Shown here: piece by piece, positions 1 to 62,952 of the stretch
Position numbering within the stretch: position 1 is the stretch's first letter
Layout of the letters: every line of letters begins with the position of its first letter
Sequence record: MT932213.1
Reading direction: 5' to 3' (one strand)
DNA from: Escherichia phage VEc74
DNA length: 64,000 nt
Notes under the pieces: model-generated
What the model saw: the letters and a program-made list of their open reading frames with translations, nothing else
Told to the model about the DNA's origin: nothing
Databases searched by the model: none
Made by a program: the position numbers and the translations under genes

Positions 1-2178
1 TTAGGCCGCAAGGGCCTTCATAGTTTTAGCGATTTGGGAAACTTCATCATCACTTAAAGAGTTGCGATAACCGATGAAGTCAGAAACAATACGGAATTTC
101 TTGGTAAACTCAGCAACCATTTTATCACTGTTTTTTGAAGCATTATTTGATAATACATCAAAAAGATTAGTTACTGTCCAGATGTCATGACCGATGGTAT
201 CTCTTCCACCATTAAAATATACACCCTGTAATGAACTAACCATATTAGCAAGTCGTGTATATTCTTCAGAAACTTCATCTACACTGAAGTACTTCATCAT
301 AAAATCTAACTCAGGATACTTGATAATTTTATCAATATATCGTTTAGCTGAACTTGAATAACCTACATACTTATCATAATCTACATCATCAAAAGCATCT
401 ACATATAAATCACGCAAAGCTTCAAAAATACATTGGCACTGACCGAGTTCTTTTACCTTTTTCTGTAAAAGCGGACGAATAACATAAAATTCATTAATTC
501 CAATAAGATTAGCCATACGAATCAAAATATTCATAGATGGATGACAAAGAGATGTAGTACCATCCATAGAGAAAATATCAGAACGATGCATATACGCTAC
601 ATAACCAGTAATTTCATCTGCTTCTGACGTAAGTGTAAATAGTTCCTCTTTTTCCCAACGCCCATCTTTAATTTCAAACTTAAATGCTGTAGCAGCTTTA
701 GGACGAGGAGCTTTACTTTTAACTACCTTTGGAATATAGCTTTTAACTAAAGCTTCAATTTCTGACAAATAATGAATGTTAACTTCATCACTTTCGAACA
801 TCGCCATAATATCAGGGAGTAAATCAATCTGCGATTCTACTTCTGGATTAATAAACAGAAGACGCTCATTGTGATGAATATTCAAAGTGTTATTAAATTC
901 ACTATCATCTAACGCACGTGCTAATCCACGGACAATATTAACACGATTTTTAATATCATCAATAACGATATTAATTTTTGTTGTATTAATACCAAACAGA
1001 CGATAGCTTGATGCAACGGCTGAAGTTTCATGGCTTTGCTTAATACGTTTCAGCCGAGGGTCAAGATTTACTTCATACACAACTCCTGCATTGCATAACT
1101 TACTATCAGGTTCAAACATGCTCTGCATCTTTTTATATGACAGATTTTTAGTCGTGAATTTGACTGAATTACTAATCATATAATCTCGAGCAGAATACCC
1201 CATCTTCATCAATTCACGATATGTATGACGAGGAGATGTAGATTCTTTAAATCGTTTTACATCTTCATTAAATGCTTTCTCACTGAGTTCTTTAACTCGT
1301 TCAATAATATTTTTACGAGTACGATCATCCAGTGAAAGAGCCTCGCGAGATGGAGCAATATCAAGTGAACCCATTGGAAACTTAATGTAATTCACTTCAT
1401 TGCGAATGCTTAGCCAGTTACGGTCTCTAATAACACCATCGATAGGATAAACAATACCGCCGTAGATAGCATACAATCCACCACGATCAGGCCAGTATCT
1501 TTCTGGATTTACGCCGTAATAATCATCGAAATCCGGAAAATAATCAATTTCGCGGTCAAGACCATTAATGATAGCCAAATCTTTGAACGGTCGCATGATA
1601 TAAGAAACTTCATAAGCAAAGTTTCTAAAGTCTTTTTCTTCAACTGGAACTACGATTTCAATACCAGTTTTATCATCTGGACCCATTTCTTTTACGAATG
1701 TAGGTTTAATTTGTGGACCATCGCCATCCATGTAAGCTACATAACCACGAATTTCACCTTTATGATATGAAGTAATACTAAACGTATCAGTATAACTAAA
1801 CGGAGATTTAGAACCTAAACCAAATCCGCCAATAAAGTCATTAGATTCAGCTTTAGATGAACTGAAGTATGAATTATACAGACCAGGAGAATTATCATCA
1901 CCTTGAATATCAAAATCACTCATACCCGGACCAAAATCTCGGCAAACAAATCGCGGGTCTAATCGTCCTGGAACTTGAATGATAAATTTTTCAGGATTTC
2001 CATTGAGAGCATGGGCATCAATCATGTTAGTAATCAATTCACGGACTACTGCGCGAATCTTGTTTGTATACAAATCAGATGACAGAATTTTAAATACTTT
2101 AGGAGATGCTGTGATGCTAAATGCTTTTGATTTAGAACCATTACCAAGAATTGTTTCTTTTTCAGTGGTGATAATCAT
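1..2178 (-). CDS. rIIA: rIIA protein (rapid-lysis / exclusion locus)
   Basis: 725-aa ORF whose stop codon is at the window edge; length and position directly upstream of the gene 39 region match T-even rIIA. Confidence 0.85.
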
Positions 2179-2188
2179 AATTTCCTCA

Positions 2189-2392
2189 TTAATTCATATT
2201 ACGTTTAATAACTTCGGCAACTTCTAGTAGTTCATCTTTAGTTGCAGTGTCGGATTGAATTTTATCTCTAATATCTTTAAAGCGGTTTTTAAATTCTTCG
2301 GCTTCTCCCATATCGAAAAAGCGTTGAATGATTCTATATTCTCGATGAACTGCTTTATCAAAAAGTTCTAAATTTACTTTATATGATTTCAT
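2189..2392 (-). CDS. small hypothetical protein (rIIA.1 position)
   Basis: 67-aa ORF between rIIA and gene 39, same strand, preceded by an early promoter. Confidence 0.5.
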
Positions 2393-14950: not shown

Positions 14951-15196
14951 TTATTCACCAGTTACTTTCCACAAATCTTCATTTGCAGCAATCCATGCAG
15001 CACGTTGATTTTCTTCATATACTGTAGAATATGCTGCTTTTTCTGAAGGGAATATCTGGTAATGAGCACCAGAAATTTTGTGAACGTCAGAATAAAGAGG
15101 GAAAGCTACAGAAATTTCCTTTCCTTCAATTTTCTTATTTCCATCTAATTTCTGCTCAAATGTTTTGATATTAACATAACCGCGAGTACTAGCCAT
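14951..15196 (-). CDS. soc: small outer capsid protein Soc
   Basis: 81-aa ORF between the mod region and gene 56, with a late promoter and terminator. Confidence 0.75.
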   Translation of the reverse strand: MASTRGYVNIKTFEQKLDGNKKIEGKEISVAFPLYSDVHKISGAHYQIFPSEKAAYSTVYEENQRAAWIAANEDLWKVTGE

Positions 15197-15226: not shown

Positions 15227-15234
15227 TATTTATA
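15227..15234 (-). promoter_or_regulatory. late promoter (TATAAATA)
   Basis: exact TATAAATA on the minus strand about 30 nt upstream of the soc ATG. Confidence 0.6.
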
Positions 15235-15278: not shown

Positions 15279-15797
15279 TTAATAACCTCGGTCTTGACGT
15301 GCGAAATTTTCAGCATTTTTCAGGTAATAAAGTTTAAAGATTTCTTCAGCCGTAAGACCAAGACCTTGGAACATGTTCAGAACAAAATGGAGAATATCAA
15401 TCATTTCAAATTTAATTTCCAACTGGTCTTGTGGAGACAAATCAGTAATCAAAGTTTCACGGCGTTCACCATGCTGCGACTTCCAAGGTTTCCATACAGC
15501 AGATGCATCTTTTTCGCCGTTGCTCATACCACCAAGAGAAGTCAAAAGTTCGCGGAATTCATCATCAATATAATCTTTCTGATTGCGCAGCCAATCAACA
15601 ACTTCACCTGCAGTAGCCAAATCATCAGGATGACGGTTATATTCAGGTTTATCTTTAGCTAAACGAACCTGCAAAGATTTCTGCATATCAAGCATAACTT
15701 GCAGCGGGTCTTTTTCATCACCGAGAATATCCCAGTATTCATTTTGAGCTTTATCAGCGCCTTCGATCAATTGTGAACATTCATTAAAGTATGCCAT
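15279..15797 (-). CDS. 56: dCTPase/dCDPase gp56 (MazG-like)
   Basis: ORF starting MAYFNE at an internal ATG with an AAGGA RBS; the tracked N-terminal extension is hydrophobic and likely spurious. Confidence 0.7.
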   Translation of the reverse strand: MAYFNECSQLIEGADKAQNEYWDILGDEKDPLQVMLDMQKSLQVRLAKDKPEYNRHPDDLATAGEVVDWLRNQKDYIDDEFRELLTSLGGMSNGEKDASAVWKPWKSQHGERRETLITDLSPQDQLEIKFEMIDILHFVLNMFQGLGLTAEEIFKLYYLKNAENFARQDRGY

Positions 15798-15868
15798 TAT
15801 TTTTCCTTTCAATTCATGGATTAGTAGATTAATTATACAATAAATATATAAAGCAATAAGGAGGACAT

Positions 15869-16069
15869 ATGGTACAAAAATTAATGGCACTTGTTAATGC
15901 CATCAAAGGTAATAAAAAGCGTATAGCTTTTACTATTTCTGCTATGGTAGGAATTTTACTCTGGAACTTTATTTTATCACCTGTTGCAATTGCGCATGGT
16001 ATTAATATTCCAGTAGTTACTCTTGATACATTCGTAGATTTAGCATTTGCTTTAGTTGGGTTAATTTAA
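15869..16069 (+). CDS. small hydrophobic protein encoded on the opposite strand
   Basis: 66-aa ORF with two predicted TM segments, AAGGAGG SD before the ATG, no minus-strand ORF in the 56-61 intergenic interval. Confidence 0.35.
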   Translation: MVQKLMALVNAIKGNKKRIAFTISAMVGILLWNFILSPVAIAHGINIPVVTLDTFVDLAFALVGLI

Positions 16070-17094
16070 ATCTTAGCATATTTAGATAACCGCATTTTAG
16101 CCATCAACCCCTGGGCAATATTATTTTTCATATATTCCATAATTTGTTCAGGGGTTGCACCTTCCTTTCTAATCATATCATTAACATCTTTTGATTTCCA
16201 GGGAGATTTATCCCAAAACATAACCCTTTCTCCTGCATCAACTAATTTAGTCATTCGCTTAATAGTGTCAGGATGACGAGGTTCATTATCTAAAACCCAC
16301 ACTCGTCTATCTTTAAATGGAACAATTTCTAGGTCTAATTGACCACCCGTAATAGCTATACCATTTTCAATAAAAAGTGAATCTATAGGTCCTTCTAGAA
16401 CATATACATCGCCATCTTTAACTCGTTCGACTCCATAGATTTTTGTTGCCTCAGGATAAGCTTTGATGGTGATATATTTTTGAGGAGCATCTTTCTTTAA
16501 TGCACGTCCTTGAAAAGACTCAGCTTTTCCACTAGCATTATAAATTGGAATAACGAGACGAGGCTCAGGTATTTCCTTTTTATATGTTCCCGGTGCTATG
16601 CTATTAACTAATTTAGGCCATTCAGTTGTAAACCAAAGATATTTCCATTTATCCTTTGGAATACAACGAGCTTTTACGTATTTTATAATTGGATGGTCTT
16701 CCGTCAGTTTATCTAATCTAACACATGACGGAAGAGATTTAATTATTTTCTTCTCAGGTTGTTTAGGAAGTTCTTTAGGTTTTTCTACTGGACGACTTTT
16801 ACCTTTTTCTTTTCTTATTTCAAAGATATACTCACGATATAAATCAGGTTCAAACTCCTTTAAATATATTCCGATTGGTGCATGATAGTTACAGTTATAA
16901 CAATGAATATTTCCTTCATTATTATCACCATAATACCATCCACGAGCTTTATTCTGGTCGGTTTTTGAATCTCCACAAACAGGGCATCTAAACCGTAATT
17001 TAAAAGTTGAACTATTATTTACTTGTGTGAATTTAGGTAAATGAGCTAATGCACGATACGCAAACTCATTATCAATCCAAGGTATTGATGACAT
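16066..17094 (-). CDS. 61: DNA primase gp61
   Basis: 342-aa ORF with an N-terminal zinc ribbon (CPVCGDS...HCYNC) and a TOPRIM-like core. Confidence 0.85.
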   Translation of the reverse strand: MSSIPWIDNEFAYRALAHLPKFTQVNNSSTFKLRFRCPVCGDSKTDQNKARGWYYGDNNEGNIHCYNCNYHAPIGIYLKEFEPDLYREYIFEIRKEKGKSRPVEKPKELPKQPEKKIIKSLPSCVRLDKLTEDHPIIKYVKARCIPKDKWKYLWFTTEWPKLVNSIAPGTYKKEIPEPRLVIPIYNASGKAESFQGRALKKDAPQKYITIKAYPEATKIYGVERVKDGDVYVLEGPIDSLFIENGIAITGGQLDLEIVPFKDRRVWVLDNEPRHPDTIKRMTKLVDAGERVMFWDKSPWKSKDVNDMIRKEGATPEQIMEYMKNNIAQGLMAKMRLSKYAKI

Positions 17095-17096
17095 TT

Positions 17097-17261
17097 TTAC
17101 TCTTCTTTTTCTTTAGATTCCTCTTTTTTCTTTTTAGGAATCTGTTCAGGACCTTTATTTACTACAGCGCCTGACGTTGTTCCGGTAGAGATATTTTCAG
17201 GATTACCACCTGAATCTCCAGCGACCATATCTTCTTTGATAAATTCTTTATATGTTTTCAT
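17097..17261 (-). CDS. small protein with a capsid-targeting-sequence-like N-terminus
   Basis: 54-aa ORF MKTYKEFIKE..., GAGG RBS, start abuts the stop of the upstream gene; hand-translated and below the ORF-track cutoff. Confidence 0.4.
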   Translation of the reverse strand: MKTYKEFIKEDMVAGDSGGNPENISTGTTSGAVVNKGPEQIPKKKKEESKEKEE

Positions 17262-17262
17262 A

Positions 17263-17889
17263 TTAACCTCTATTCATAAAAGCATTAAAAATTTGGTCAT
17301 CAATAGAAACATTTACTTTAGACTGTTTTTCTGATGGTAATTCATATCCACATATTACAATTTTGTGATCAATATCAAAATACACAGAAGCAATATGATT
17401 AATGATGTTTTCAGTAAAGTCTAAATCAACATCAATATCTTTTTGACCACAGCCCAAAGGATAAATAATGCGAGTAATTCGATTATCTTTAACAAAGATT
17501 CCACCGACATACTCTGTGCTGCGTTTAAAGTCTACACGCCGACGAAATGAAAAATATTCAGGCTCTTTATGAGCTCGGCTCATAGGGCACAACGAATAAC
17601 TAGAATAAGAGATGTCAAATCCTACGCCTTCAATATGAACTAAATTGTCATGATTAAACCAATTATAATCATATGCCAAGTCCATTAGATTGTCATATGT
17701 GAAAGGCACCGGATTAACATCATTGGTCACAAGCATATAATTGGCAACTGCTATAATTTCATTATTTTTAACGAATACAAACCGTGATTGATGCGAATGA
17801 CCTGGACCTGCGTTTTCACGATTAATGATATAACACTGGGCACCTTTATATTTGTACGTGTCTTTACACTTGTGCATTTGATAAAGCAT
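17263..17889 (-). CDS. hypothetical protein (61.1/61.2 position)
   Basis: 208-aa ORF. Confidence 0.5.
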   Translation of the reverse strand: MLYQMHKCKDTYKYKGAQCYIINRENAGPGHSHQSRFVFVKNNEIIAVANYMLVTNDVNPVPFTYDNLMDLAYDYNWFNHDNLVHIEGVGFDISYSSYSLCPMSRAHKEPEYFSFRRRVDFKRSTEYVGGIFVKDNRITRIIYPLGCGQKDIDVDLDFTENIINHIASVYFDIDHKIVICGYELPSEKQSKVNVSIDDQIFNAFMNRG

Positions 17890-18182
17890 TATTCACCTAC
17901 TACTTCAGCGATGATATTTTTATTATTGAAGTTTTTATCGCAATACAGAACATAATTATACTGCATTACACCACCAGACTTAAGTTGTTTTTGCACTTCA
18001 GCTTTCATTTCAGGACGATCGCGCTCAACGATATTCATAATATCTGCTTCAATTTGAGTTTCAACCTCAGTCTGATCAGCAGTCATAGACCATTCGCACA
18101 AATCTTTATCATAACCTGCCATAGCAGGCTGAGCAGCACAAGAAGCTAAAGCAAAAATTGTAGCAAAGATAAATTTTTTCAT
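17889..18182 (-). CDS. sp: Spackle periplasmic protein (superinfection exclusion)
   Basis: 97-aa ORF with a signal peptide at the 61.3 position; T4 Sp is 97 aa. Confidence 0.6.
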   Translation of the reverse strand: MKKFIFATIFALASCAAQPAMAGYDKDLCEWSMTADQTEVETQIEADIMNIVERDRPEMKAEVQKQLKSGGVMQYNYVLYCDKNFNNKNIIAEVVGE

Positions 18183-18210
18183 GATAATCTCCTCAGTAGT
18201 TTATGTTTAT

Positions 18211-18240
18211 ATAGTATCTCAATTTCCAATAAAAGTAAAC
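18211..18240 (-). promoter_or_regulatory. T4-type early promoter
   Basis: GTTTAC, 17 bp, TACTAT. Confidence 0.5.
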
Positions 18241-18242
18241 AG

Positions 18243-18539
18243 TTATTTTAAAACTTTTGCATAATCACATGTTACAAACTGTTTCTCTAGCTTGACGATT
18301 TTACGAAAGTATCTTTTGCATTGACGAATCTGCCTCTTCGTAGGACGTACAGCAAACTTAATAAATTCCACTCGACCAAATGGAGGACTTTCTTCTGCTG
18401 GAATATCTAACACCAATTCCCACGTATCTGCAATAAGTGCTTTGAATTGCGTATTTTTCCTGACGTTATACGGAGTAGGTTTAAATAAAACAATATGCAT
18501 ATTATCCTCGGCAATCCACTTCACATACTTTCTTGTCAT
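18243..18539 (-). CDS. hypothetical protein (61.4 position)
   Basis: ORF overlapping the dmd 3' end; start taken at the first ATG. Confidence 0.4.
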   Translation of the reverse strand: MTRKYVKWIAEDNMHIVLFKPTPYNVRKNTQFKALIADTWELVLDIPAEESPPFGRVEFIKFAVRPTKRQIRQCKRYFRKIVKLEKQFVTCDYAKVLK

Positions 18540-18684
18540 CAATGAAAGCTTTAACTAATGCTTTATTAACTTCAGCATATTGAGTAGTAGCCCATTGAAC
18601 GTCATCTTTCATCATTGTGATTTCTTTAGTAAACATGCTTTCATTCTTAAACCACCCCATAAAAACTACCTTTACCAATTCCAT
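18502..18684 (-). CDS. dmd: Dmd (discriminator of mRNA degradation)
   Basis: 60-aa ORF immediately downstream of gene 41; size and position match T4 61.5/dmd. Confidence 0.55.
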   Translation of the reverse strand: MELVKVVFMGWFKNESMFTKEITMMKDDVQWATTQYAEVNKALVKAFIDDKKVCEVDCRG

Positions 18685-18713
18685 AACAATCTCCTCATTT
18701 AACCAACAAGACT

Positions 18714-18743
18714 ACTATACCATAGTCTTGTCAGCTTGTAAAC
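18714..18743 (-). promoter_or_regulatory. T4-type early promoter
   Basis: GTTTAC, 17 bp, TGGTATAGT; the -35 overlaps the gene 41 stop codon. Confidence 0.5.
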
Positions 18744-20170
18744 TAAAATTTTAATTCATTTGCCAAAGCATCTAACTGAGCTCGAGCTGATTCGTTTCTT
18801 TGATAGCGATTCTGTTCAGCCTGAATCTGTTGTGAACCTGCTACTTCGTTCACTTCAGTTGGAGTAGAATCTTGTTCAATTTCTACCCATTTCTGATTTC
18901 CTTTTTGAACACCCATCAAAAACTTATTCCATTTATTCTTATCACCATATCGTGATTTGATTTGCTTAATGAGCTGTTGTTCAGCAGCTGCTAGCTCCTC
19001 GGTTTCAATGACCGCAAGCATAAAATCAGCTGTTGCTGGAAGACCAGCAGATTCTGCAATATCGCTCATGTTAACATCAGAAGAATCCCAAGCTTGTTTG
19101 CCGACCTGTGCTGCAGTCCAAAGAACAGTTTCGGTTTCAACAGCCAAAGCACGCAATTCCTCTGCAATAGCTTTAACAGTTGTGTAACTATTTTCTGAAT
19201 AAACTCTGATGCGGCAAGATTTACAAATACCTAGATAGTCGACAATAATGATTGTTGGAACAAAATTCTTTTTGAGCTTCAATTCGTTTAAAAGTGATCG
19301 AAATGTATTAGCATCTGCTCCGCCAGTAGGATACTGTTTAACGATTAAACGACCGAGAGTAGATTTCTCACGCCATTTTTCCATTTTTCCTTTATACTCA
19401 GCGTAAGAAATATGCCCATCATCAATGTCATCAAGAGAAACATCAAGCATATTAGCATCAATACGTTTAGCACAGACTTCTTCTGCCATTTCCATGGAAA
19501 TGTAAAGAACATTATGTCCGAGCTGCAAATAATCTGCTGCCAATGAACACAATCCTAATGACTTACCAACGTTAACGCCAGCCATTAAAACGTTCAGTGT
19601 TCCAGTCTCAGCTCCGCCTTTAGTAATTTTGTTTAGAATTCTGAGTTTAAATGGAACCTTACGAGCTTTATTCATATAAGATAGCCAACGTGCTTCGTAG
19701 TCATCCATCCAATCATGACCAACGTAGCTATCAAATGAAATAGATAATGCTTGGCGCATGATGTCAGGAATAGCACCAACGTCCGGCATTTTCTTATTTC
19801 GTTTTTCCGGAGGAAGCTCAGCATTAGTTTGAATTTCGATTATTTTAGACGTAGCATTAAACATCGCCCTTTGCTGAACATATTTTTCTGTTTCTTTTAT
19901 TAACCAACTGTGGTCTTCTGGAGAATCAGCTAGTTTTGAAATAAGTGTTTTTACACCAGAATATTCTGTTTCAGTAAATGAACTATTTTCTAATGCAACA
20001 TTTAACGCATTAATAGATGGAACGCTATGATACTCATTGACATGAGATTTAATTAATTTGAATGTATTTTTAGCTGGACCACTTTCAAAATATTCTGAAT
20101 CCATATATGGCCAAACTTTTGAAAAATAAGCTTGATCAAATATGAGATGAGAAAGAATAATTTCTACCAC
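18743..20170 (-). CDS. 41: replicative DNA helicase gp41 (DnaB-like)
   Basis: 475-aa ORF with Walker A GVNVGKS and DnaB-family motifs. Confidence 0.9.
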   Translation of the reverse strand: MVEIILSHLIFDQAYFSKVWPYMDSEYFESGPAKNTFKLIKSHVNEYHSVPSINALNVALENSSFTETEYSGVKTLISKLADSPEDHSWLIKETEKYVQQRAMFNATSKIIEIQTNAELPPEKRNKKMPDVGAIPDIMRQALSISFDSYVGHDWMDDYEARWLSYMNKARKVPFKLRILNKITKGGAETGTLNVLMAGVNVGKSLGLCSLAADYLQLGHNVLYISMEMAEEVCAKRIDANMLDVSLDDIDDGHISYAEYKGKMEKWREKSTLGRLIVKQYPTGGADANTFRSLLNELKLKKNFVPTIIIVDYLGICKSCRIRVYSENSYTTVKAIAEELRALAVETETVLWTAAQVGKQAWDSSDVNMSDIAESAGLPATADFMLAVIETEELAAAEQQLIKQIKSRYGDKNKWNKFLMGVQKGNQKWVEIEQDSTPTEVNEVAGSQQIQAEQNRYQRNESARAQLDALANELKF

Positions 20171-34960: not shown

Positions 34961-34984
34961 TTAATATCCTCATTGTTTTGGTTT

Positions 34985-35009
34985 ATTTTACCAAAAATTT
35001 ATAAAGCAA
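34985..35009 (-). promoter_or_regulatory. middle-promoter candidate (MotA box TTGCTTTA, TAAAAT)
   Basis: box and -10 correctly spaced, about 25 nt upstream of the alpha-gt ATG. Confidence 0.3.
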
Positions 35010-35026
35010 TATAGGAGCCGAGGCTC

Positions 35027-35200
35027 CTATCCGCATAATACGCCATACAGAGGCTCATTAGAGCTTCTAAATTTTATGCGCTTATATGTTATAGTTCCTT
35101 CTGCTTTAGCTTTATCGTGAGCCTCTTTAAAGCGTCTCATCATTTCTACTTTAGAGGAACGAATTTTATTATAATCTATTTCAGAAGTCTGGGTGTTCAT
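35027..35200 (-). CDS. small basic protein
   Basis: 57-aa ORF, hand-translated; its stop overlaps a GGAGC/GCUCC hairpin. Confidence 0.35.
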   Translation of the reverse strand: MNTQTSEIDYNKIRSSKVEMMRRFKEAHDKAKAEGTITYKRIKFRSSNEPLYGVLCG

Positions 35201-35203
35201 CTT

Positions 35204-38031: not shown

Positions 38032-38200
38032 GGAGTTTAATTTCCTTAGCAACTGAACTAAATACAGCACGATCACAAATCATACGTTTGTTCCATTTAA
38101 TCACAGTATAATGAACATCTAGATCATCGACTGCTGTAACAATAACGATATGTCCGTTAACACGATAATACTGGTCAATTTTAATCTCTTTATCAACCAT
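38024..38200 (-). CDS. small hypothetical protein
   Basis: 58-aa ORF downstream of an early promoter; hand-translated. Confidence 0.35.
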   Translation of the reverse strand: MVDKEIKIDQYYRVNGHIVIVTAVDDLDVHYTVIKWNKRMICDRAVFSSVAKEIKLHG

Positions 38201-38230
38201 ATCAATTCCTCAAAGGTAATTCATATGTTA

Positions 38231-38260
38231 ATAATACCACGGTTTGAACTTGTTGTAAAC
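38231..38260 (-). promoter_or_regulatory. T4-type early promoter (part of a PeSL-like unit)
   Basis: GTTTAC, 17 bp, TGGTATTAT with an A/T-rich upstream element. Confidence 0.55.
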
Positions 38261-38340
38261 AACTTTGTGAAAAATATTTTAGGGAATGATAAGAAAGGAA
38301 CGATAGCTTAGAATGGTAATATACAGAATGTGAGAAAGAA

Positions 38341-38356
38341 AGGCCCAGAGGGCCAG
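38341..38356 (-). terminator. GC hairpin (GGCCC-UCU-GGGCC) followed by a UUUCUUUC tract
   Basis: inverted repeat directly 3' of the nrdH-like stop. Confidence 0.5.
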
Positions 38357-38358
38357 TC

Positions 38359-53260: not shown

Positions 53261-53419
53261 ATTGATTCTCTTCGACTCGCTCACAATTACATACTCCTTT
53301 GAATAATATCAATAATGTTGTTCACCAAATTATAAGTAAACATTGGGTAATTATATTGAATCATCACATACACAACAAACAAAACTTTCATTCTCTTCTC
53401 CTTGGCAGTTGACAAGATT

Positions 53420-53449
53420 ACTATACCATAACCTTGCCAACTTGTAAAC
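53420..53449 (-). promoter_or_regulatory. T4-type early promoter
   Basis: GTTTAC, 17 bp, TGGTATAGT. Confidence 0.5.
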
Positions 53450-53451
53450 CA

Positions 53452-53625
53452 TTAAATGACGTTTTCAATAAAATTCTGAAGCTTTGTGTGAGCATCAACC
53501 ATGATTTTCATTTCTTCTTTGGCGAAAGCTGTACCTCTTTCCCGAGAAGAATATTCATAGTCAGAAACTGCATTAGCATATTCTTCAATTAGCTTCATTA
53601 AAAACATCTGCTTTTCAGTTTTCAT
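53452..53625 (-). CDS. small hypothetical protein
   Basis: 57-aa ORF with a GGTGG RBS; hand-translated. Confidence 0.3.
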   Translation of the reverse strand: MKTEKQMFLMKLIEEYANAVSDYEYSSRERGTAFAKEEMKIMVDAHTKLQNFIENVI

Positions 53626-55200: not shown

Positions 55201-55242
55201 ATATACCCCTTTAGTTAGATAAACCTATTTATAACTTTTGCA

Positions 55243-61983: not shown

Positions 61984-62952
<969 letters not shown>

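Follow-up and report, generated by a model that had tools for sequence, protein, structure and literature searches.

The stretch of DNA analysed here (the window), 64,000 nt from Escherichia phage VEc74 (sequence record MT932213.1), is the early region of a Tequatrovirus (T4-type) genome, in which the minus strand carries nearly all genes. Within it, a 268-nt gap between the start of gene 56 (ATG at 15797) and the stop of gene 61 (16066) harbors an open reading frame (ORF) of 66 codons on the plus strand, raising the questions of whether this frame is a gene, when it would be expressed, and what its product may do. The 2-kb region around the ORF shows 96-98.6% identity to hundreds of T-even phage records, and 61.1, 61.2, and spackle are further neighbors of the locus. 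The genes and signals of the region that are referred to below are:

14951-15196, minus strand: soc
15279-15797, minus strand: gene 56, dCTPase, divergent from the ORF, 73% identical to T4 gp56
15858-15864, plus strand: Shine-Dalgarno sequence AAGGAGG, 4 nt ahead of the ATG
15869-16069, plus strand: CDS with ATG start, 66-aa small membrane protein (RB32ORF030w / VR7ORF033w / phrog_2024 family), MVQKLMALVNAIKGNKKRIAFTISAMVGILLWNFILSPVAIAHGINIPVVTLDTFVDLAFALVGLI
16066-17094, minus strand: gene 61, DNA primase, convergent with the ORF, 98% identical to T4 gp61
17889-18182, minus strand: spackle (sp), about 2 kb from the ORF
61984-62478, minus strand: e, 46 kb from the ORF

An earlier note on this DNA had described the 66-codon plus-strand ORF and its AAGGAGG sequence, and both were confirmed (ATG at 15869, Shine-Dalgarno sequence at 15858-15864). 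The 268-nt gap was also rightly said to lack a minus-strand ORF, as only a GTG-started, in-frame upstream extension of gene 56 (15279..15890) enters it, and no separate gene. At its other end, the stop codons of the ORF and of gene 61, both TAA, share bases (TTAA, 16066-16069). A rough scan for plus-strand ORFs of at least 40 aa lying mostly outside minus-strand ORFs found nine in the 64-kb window, only one of which, the present ORF, combines an ATG with a full Shine-Dalgarno sequence, in agreement with its description as the sole convincing plus-strand candidate. Three stretches of 240-330 nt in the window (34961-35203, 38077-38358, and 53285-53614) are free of minus-strand ORFs of at least 60 aa and have no convincing plus-strand ORF; small genes, RNAs, or regulatory regions are possible there.

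The conservation and codon-substitution analyses that the earlier note had proposed were carried out across related phages. The ORF protein matched 696 phage records by tblastn, and the frame is not broken in close relatives, as at least 80% of it is carried by 686 of the 696, that is, near full length. Identities were 90-100% within Tequatrovirus and 38-56% in other genera, and a query with a second subtype of the protein matched 945 records, including phages of Klebsiella, Enterobacter, Citrobacter, and Salmonella. Both position and strand are shared by homologs from at least five Tevenvirinae genera. Flanked by the gene 56 side and the 3' end of gene 61, the homolog is the only gene on the plus strand there in Mosigvirus, Gaprivervirus, Kanagawavirus, and Jiaodavirus, and a metagenomic T4-like contig carries it in the same syntenic position. 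A ribosome-binding site of the GGAGG/GGAG type is found upstream in every homolog. The dN/dS ratios within genera (Nei-Gojobori, n = 19 DNA sequences from five genera) were mostly 0.1-0.35, with values of 0.15-0.3 among Tequatrovirus, 0.10 between the two Mosigvirus phages moskry and phiC120 (11 synonymous and 4 non-synonymous changes), and 0.14 between pKp20 and Metamorpho; two Jiaodavirus phages were separated by 20.5 synonymous versus 13.5 non-synonymous changes. Variable columns at codon positions 1, 2, and 3 numbered 32, 5, and 51, respectively (chi-square p = 1e-8; 19 homologs), and frame +1 alone is open in all 19 homologs. The dN/dS ratios, the codon-position pattern, and the open frame together indicate a protein-coding gene under purifying selection, and the ORF is almost certainly a genuine, conserved accessory gene of T-even-type phages (Tevenvirinae).

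Some variation was noted at the start of the gene and behind it. In T6 (locus 1462-1662, plus strand) ATT replaces the first ATG, and the annotated start is the Met6-equivalent codon, 20 nt farther from the Shine-Dalgarno sequence. Lambda S has a dual start, and a similar arrangement here (Met1, Lys4, Met6) was dropped as a feature of the family, given that conservation of Met6 does not extend beyond Tequatrovirus. In Gaprivervirus phages the first copy is directly followed by an unannotated second one in tandem (VR7 locus 2001-2270, plus strand), a paralog that belongs to a Kanagawavirus-like subtype (MGTLFYQIWKL...), and TH15 also shows two matches. The second-paralog frame of VR7 continues into DNA antisense to the primase gene and may be frameshifted or decaying, and TH57 has only a 109-nt remnant gap.

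The ORF sits antisense inside the early 61-to-56 transcription unit, and its first dozen codons are overlapped by a further element of the minus strand:

15871-15906, minus strand: terminator-like hairpin (15906..15881, 11 pairs) followed by a TTTTTG run, specific to Tequatrovirus

Other annotators have marked the same hairpin in ASO78A and fPS-90, and have annotated minus-strand early or middle promoters just upstream of the ORF in related phages. The hairpin is absent at the Mosigvirus, Kanagawavirus, and Jiaodavirus loci. Where present, it would end gene 61 transcripts near the first ORF codons, so that their 3' untranslated region would be antisense to the whole ORF. These minus-strand elements, together with the unannotated interval in the T4 reference records, could be taken to mean that the interval is regulatory DNA (the gene 61 3' untranslated region, a terminator, and dam/56 promoters near oriA) in which a frame is kept open by chance. 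Such DNA does not account for the three-base periodicity of the substitutions (32/5/51) with dN/dS of about 0.1-0.35, for a frame that stays open across genera at 21-55% amino-acid identity, for motifs conserved at the level of protein and not of DNA, or for homologs in unrelated contexts (prophages, and downstream of gene 49); these comparative data effectively refute the non-coding reading, leaving it only a very slight probability. The hairpin was also ruled out as the cause of ORF conservation, as it is missing outside Tequatrovirus while the protein is conserved.

The location of the ORF had been described in the earlier note as the place where T4 carries dam, which proved mistaken: T4 has both dam and the ORF. 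The T4 copy, 97% identical, is found at 17738-17938 (plus strand) of the T4 record, within a 309-nt gap that extends from dam (16846-17625, minus strand) to gene 61 (17935-18963, minus strand), and the ORF is therefore no replacement for dam. In comparison with T4, dam and its flanks, about 900 nt, are missing from the window, with 20 nt at 15838-15857 in their place, and neither dam nor segF was found anywhere in the 64-kb window. The dam insertion or deletion coincides with a mosaic boundary (window 15712-15857 versus T4 record 16700-17725), on whose flanks gp61 is 98% and gp56 only 73% identical to T4.

Annotation of the ORF differs among records. The interval bears no annotation in the T4 reference records NC_000866 and AF158101, and is annotated in the newer T4 record OZ209057.1; most relatives annotate a hypothetical protein (e.g. 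RB32ORF030w, VR7ORF033w). The family is already catalogued as hypothetical in databases and was overlooked in the T4 reference records, and a literature search found no paper on the ORF. Two names found in databases, "putative head morphogenesis protein" in the T6 record and "Holin" in UniProt for the OE5505 homolog, were excluded as evidence because they are unsupported transfers; the unexplained "Holin" label of that one UniProt entry is the only prior trace of the holin relationship described below. Another database "homolog", P0135, corresponds to the T4 ORF after replacement of each C by T (changes of A to V, T to I, S to F, P to L, H to Y, and R to C), evidently an assembly of bisulfite-converted reads and a database artefact.

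Expression of the ORF had been regarded in the earlier note as uncertain, as no canonical late promoter was seen upstream. The exact late -10 element of T4, TATAAATA, is indeed absent upstream on the plus strand, but a natural variant of it, AATAAATA, is present, and the uncertainty drawn from the missing motif is not supported. The two sites at this end of the locus are:

15839-15846, plus strand: octamer AATAAATA, late-promoter-like, which differs from the T4 late -10 element TATAAATA by A at -13 and lies 22 nt upstream of the ATG
15227-15234, minus strand: soc late promoter TATAAATA, just past gene 56

Among 50 late promoter sites listed for T4, 32 are perfect copies of TATAAATA and nine have A for T at -13, the commonest natural variant, with the caution that in vivo activity has been demonstrated for not all of the 50 (Geiduschek and Kassavetis, PMC2988020). 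Early and middle transcription of T4 is all counterclockwise (PMC2988020), and therefore a plus-strand gene at this place can only be late. The octamer at 15839-15846 also fits the layout of T4 late genes, whose expression depends on gp55, gp33, and gp45 and on DNA replication, and whose transcripts start about 6 nt downstream of a TATAAATA-type -10 element that has no -35 partner.

In the 64 kb, AATAAATA occurs four times against 15.0 +/- 3.8 expected, TATAAATA four times against 11 expected, and the heptamer ATAAATA 10 times against 41 +/- 6 expected, a fourfold depletion; the late-promoter motif is under strong negative selection in the window. All five minus-strand copies of ATAAATA (15227, 42083, 55226, 62492, and 62505) lie immediately upstream of soc, gene 49, rI.-1/rI, and e (two copies), which, following the T4 literature, we take to be late-expressed genes. 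The full motif upstream of rI spans 55226-55233, and the AATAAATA variant is also found 25 nt upstream of the gene 49 ATG in the window. The other four plus-strand copies of ATAAATA (13915, 17461, 59353, and 62901) are not followed by an ORF and might give rise to late antisense transcripts.

At the ORF itself, ATAAATA stands 12-22 nt ahead of the start codon in every genus, the remaining upstream DNA being unalignable. Both Kanagawavirus phages have TATAAATA as the octamer; the window, T6, and Mosigvirus share AATAAATA; T4 has GATAAATA; and Gaprivervirus and Jiaodavirus have CATAAATA. The AATAAATA copy of the window falls within the 20 nt that are not homologous to T4 DNA, and the separate GATAAATA copy of T4 (17709-17716) stands at an equal distance. 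We propose that gp55-RNA polymerase would transcribe the ORF only late, from this variant late promoter, with a predicted transcript start at about 15852 and a leader of about 17 nt that would contain the Shine-Dalgarno sequence.

By profile comparison, the window protein is the Tequatrovirus member of phrog_2024 (E = 1.4e-31; residues 2-66 against profile positions 1-65 of 65), a PHROG family of unknown function (pVOG VOG1982) whose T4-type members are 60-69 aa long. RB32ORF030w and VR7ORF033w belong to the same family and show no material difference in length or in their opposite-strand location between genes 56 and 61. An exhaustive HMMER search of 1.8 billion representative proteins found only 22 clusters, all of 33-99 aa. 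Searches of Pfam, NCBIfam, and PDB sequences with the window protein and the T4-type alignment gave no significant match, and scattered sub-threshold matches (YwcE, SspI, Ldr, YejA, and others) were treated as noise. With the metagenomic members P0137 and P0130 as queries, tblastn found no match in GenBank phages.

Members outside Tevenvirinae all match phrog_2024 (E = 1e-6 to 3e-21). Those in E. coli and Leclercia prophages are encoded at the prophage end, downstream of tail-tip genes, as the last or next-to-last gene before host DNA; one from Leclercia has 83 aa. They lie 1-5 genes from a gene for a soluble T4-type lysozyme, with a SegE-like homing endonuclease gene nearby; as the lysozyme gene is on the opposite strand, it shares no operon with the family member. 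In diverged T4-like contigs the member follows tail-fibre genes and overlaps the endonuclease VII gene at the end of the latter. The prophage ends (loci L024-L028 and L032) share a cassette consisting of tail-tip genes, a gene for an 81-95 aa protein with an N-terminal membrane helix and a coiled coil, the T4-type soluble lysozyme gene on the opposite strand, the SegE-like GIY-YIG endonuclease gene, the phrog_2024 member, and then host DNA. A similar 94-aa membrane and coiled-coil protein is encoded ahead of endonuclease VII and the member in two T4-like metagenomic contigs (L030 and L031). This prophage-end cassette may be an unrecognised lysis module.

The N-terminus of the protein is basic (K4, K13, K16, K17, and R18) and has no acidic residue, and it is therefore placed in the cytoplasm. 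Of the two hydrophobic helices claimed in the earlier note, that of residues 19-42 is strongly hydrophobic in all family members examined, whereas the second is not hydrophobic in all genera: residues 51-66 have this character in Tequatrovirus and Mosigvirus, and only weakly in Kanagawavirus and Jiaodavirus. Because of this uneven hydrophobicity of the C-terminal segment, the conserved architecture is one transmembrane helix plus a short C-terminal helix. An AlphaFold2 model from a 29-sequence alignment (pLDDT 78) has helices at residues 2-12, 16-42, and 52-63, the C-terminal one of only 12 residues, and a Foldseek search of viral structures with this model returned family members only. The helix of residues 19-42 is followed by the loop HGINIPVV and by a final segment that contains D53 and D57, has no charge beyond D57, and ends in ...AFALVGLI. 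W32, N33, and P38 form an invariant core, and G44, P48, and G64 are invariant or nearly so. The product would insert in the inner membrane with its basic N-terminus in the cytoplasm, its single transmembrane helix (about residues 19-42) bearing the invariant W-N-(F/Y/L)...P motif, followed by a conserved loop G-x-x-(L/I)-P predicted to be periplasmic and by the short C-terminal helix, which would re-enter the membrane or lie on it. We consider it probable that the ORF product is both expressed late and inserted in the membrane.

A relationship to holins emerged from the distant members of the family. Three of them match Pfam PF11351 (GTA_holin_3TM, "Holin of 3TMs, for gene-transfer release") weakly but in one register (E = 0.03-0.1), and three match the PHROG holin family phrog_3427 with E = 5e-4, 2e-3, and 0.15. 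The PF11351 scores of the distant members, 13.6-15.3 bits, are below the gathering threshold of 24.8, which was exceeded by all seven phage holins used as a control set (up to 78.5 bits); four of the six control neighborhoods examined had an annotated endolysin-type gene adjoining the holin. Neither the window protein nor any of 29 mainly T4-type members matched PF11351. In hhalign comparisons with the seven holins, the distant members were aligned over 54 columns with a probability of 94% (E = 8e-8, score 44.4), the whole family with 88% (score 36.6), and the T4-type subset, in the same register, with 23% (E = 9e-4, score 24.4), while a reversed alignment and 120 column-shuffled ones never rose above a score of 16.9. 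The holin link is thus transitive, via the distant members, given that the window protein has no Pfam hit and the T4-type subset reaches only 23%.

Only holin columns of about 70-129 are aligned, which correspond to the last two holin membrane helices with their connecting loop and contain the core aromatic-x-F-h-h-x-P ... G ... P-x-(I/V)-(D/E) ... G-L, and the T4-type protein stops where the charged holin tail R-(S/T)-(F/Y)-E-K-x-K-G starts. Members of 80-99 aa look like intermediates, P0131 for example aligning to PF11351 positions 30-116. The family would be derived from the last two membrane helices of the PF11351 "3TM GTA-type" holins, with loss of an N-terminal region of about 65 residues and of the charged C-terminal tail, and the protein appears to be a truncated variant relative to these holins. 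On these alignments, descent from the PF11351 holin family is somewhat more likely than not, at a confidence clearly below that for late expression and membrane insertion. The name of PF11351 refers to the gene transfer agent of Rhodobacter capsulatus, whose endolysin-holin locus rcc00555-rcc00556 is needed for lysis and release (PMC5026251).

Like the holins of PF11351 and phrog_3427, the ORF product is a small phage membrane protein, with late expression in its case predicted from the promoter. On the other hand, PF11351 holins have three hydrophobic segments and the N-terminal region of about 65 aa, whereas the ORF protein has one firm and one doubtful membrane helix and no such region. Holins generally also have a hydrophilic, highly charged C-terminal domain, which the ORF protein lacks, and a gene that is adjacent to or co-transcribed with that of the endolysin, whereas the ORF in T4-type genomes is not beside e, t, or the spanin genes. 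Class II holins carry a charged cytoplasmic C-terminus; together with pinholins such as S68 of phage 21 they resemble the ORF protein in size (about 65-70 aa), in a possible two-helix hairpin, and in a cytoplasmic N-terminus. The likeness to the S68 type is one of size and topology by description, and autonomous pinhole formation is disfavored by the behavior of T4 t mutants. The main holin of T4 is T, and t mutants do not lyse, their phage production going on and their metabolism not being stopped. The ORF protein is thus neither an autonomous holin nor a lethal pinholin at its natural level, and a role as main holin is excluded by the failure of t mutants to lyse, by the missing holin C-terminal tail, and by the lack of linkage of the gene to e. 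T4 T (holin) and RI and RIII (antiholins) are late proteins, small (RI, RIII) or membrane-bound (T, RI), that act at the inner membrane, as predicted for the ORF protein. No sequence relationship was found between the ORF protein and T, RI, or RIII, and the periplasmic domain of RI comprises about 70 residues, while the ORF protein would expose at most about 25.

Holin descent, the predicted late timing, and the placement of family members near lysozyme or late modules elsewhere suggest a role at the inner membrane around lysis. Late in infection, the protein would oligomerise or pair with another membrane protein via its conserved helix-loop core, and would thereby act as an accessory factor, holin-like or holin-modulating, that modulates the integrity of the inner membrane or the timing of lysis. 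Taken as a whole, the statement that the ORF encodes a late, holin-derived accessory inner-membrane protein that modulates membrane integrity or lysis timing falls a little short of even confidence, and a lysis-related role as such is possible but somewhat doubtful. A more specific version, in which a two-helix remnant of an ancestral 3TM holin tunes or triggers T-dependent lysis or lysis inhibition as a co-holin or antiholin and is also gated by the antisense gene 61 transcript, is improbable.

The protein could instead be a late membrane protein unrelated to lysis, acting in superinfection exclusion or immunity, in resistance to lysis from without, or in the modulation of host membrane proteins, its holin likeness reflecting a shared ancestral hairpin. 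The position of the prophage members, past the tail-tip genes and last or next-to-last before host DNA, would agree with this, as prophage ends are typical places for exclusion or conversion genes; so would the distance of only about 2 kb between the ORF and spackle (sp) in T4-type genomes, the absence of a charged C-terminal tail, and a lysis set of T4 that is already complete. However, imm and sp, the exclusion genes known in T4, are expressed early, and Imm-type proteins block incoming DNA, whereas expression of the ORF appears, from its strand and promoter, to be late only. In addition, a holin family is the sole database family with any similarity, and no similarity to known defence or exclusion families was found in the databases searched here (Pfam, NCBIfam, PDB, and PHROG), so that we regard a function unrelated to lysis as rather unlikely.

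A different possibility is a small toxin-like hydrophobic peptide gated by convergent antisense transcription, as in type I toxin-antitoxin systems; the early mRNA of gene 61 would silence the ORF until this mRNA decays. As in hok/sok and ldr, a small hydrophobic peptide would be fully overlapped by an antisense transcript: early minus-strand transcription crosses the ORF in every genus, and the Tequatrovirus hairpin near the ORF start codon would build in a full sense-antisense overlap. Yet this hairpin is not conserved outside Tequatrovirus, and the antisense partner would be the 3' end of a protein-coding early mRNA, whereas type I systems have a dedicated small antisense RNA. One member weakly matches Pfam Ldr_toxin (E = 0.1), but this single sub-threshold match is one among many of like weight, and the ORF family has no significant sequence match to type I toxins. 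As the late promoter alone accounts for the timing and there is no sign of toxicity, such a toxin is very improbable, and an accessory role at the inner membrane around lysis remains our preferred reading.

T4 serves as the reference organism of its virus group, and the genetic inventory of its lysis system is considered complete, with T, E, RI, RIII, and the spanins as components. Since the ORF is absent from the T4 reference annotation, analyses bound to the reference gene list, such as arrays and targeted screens, miss it, and proteomics likely misses its product as well, because trypsin yields only one peptide of usable size (LMALVNAIK). The firm part of these results is a conserved, late-promoter-associated gene for a small inner-membrane protein, and the tentative part is its function. 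If the protein has no role in lysis, it would be one more uncharacterised accessory gene product of T4, and the outcome would be a correction of the T4 annotation only. If the lysis role is true, the gene would add a new player to a textbook system, and its product would be an example of a holin whittled down to its helix-loop-helix core.
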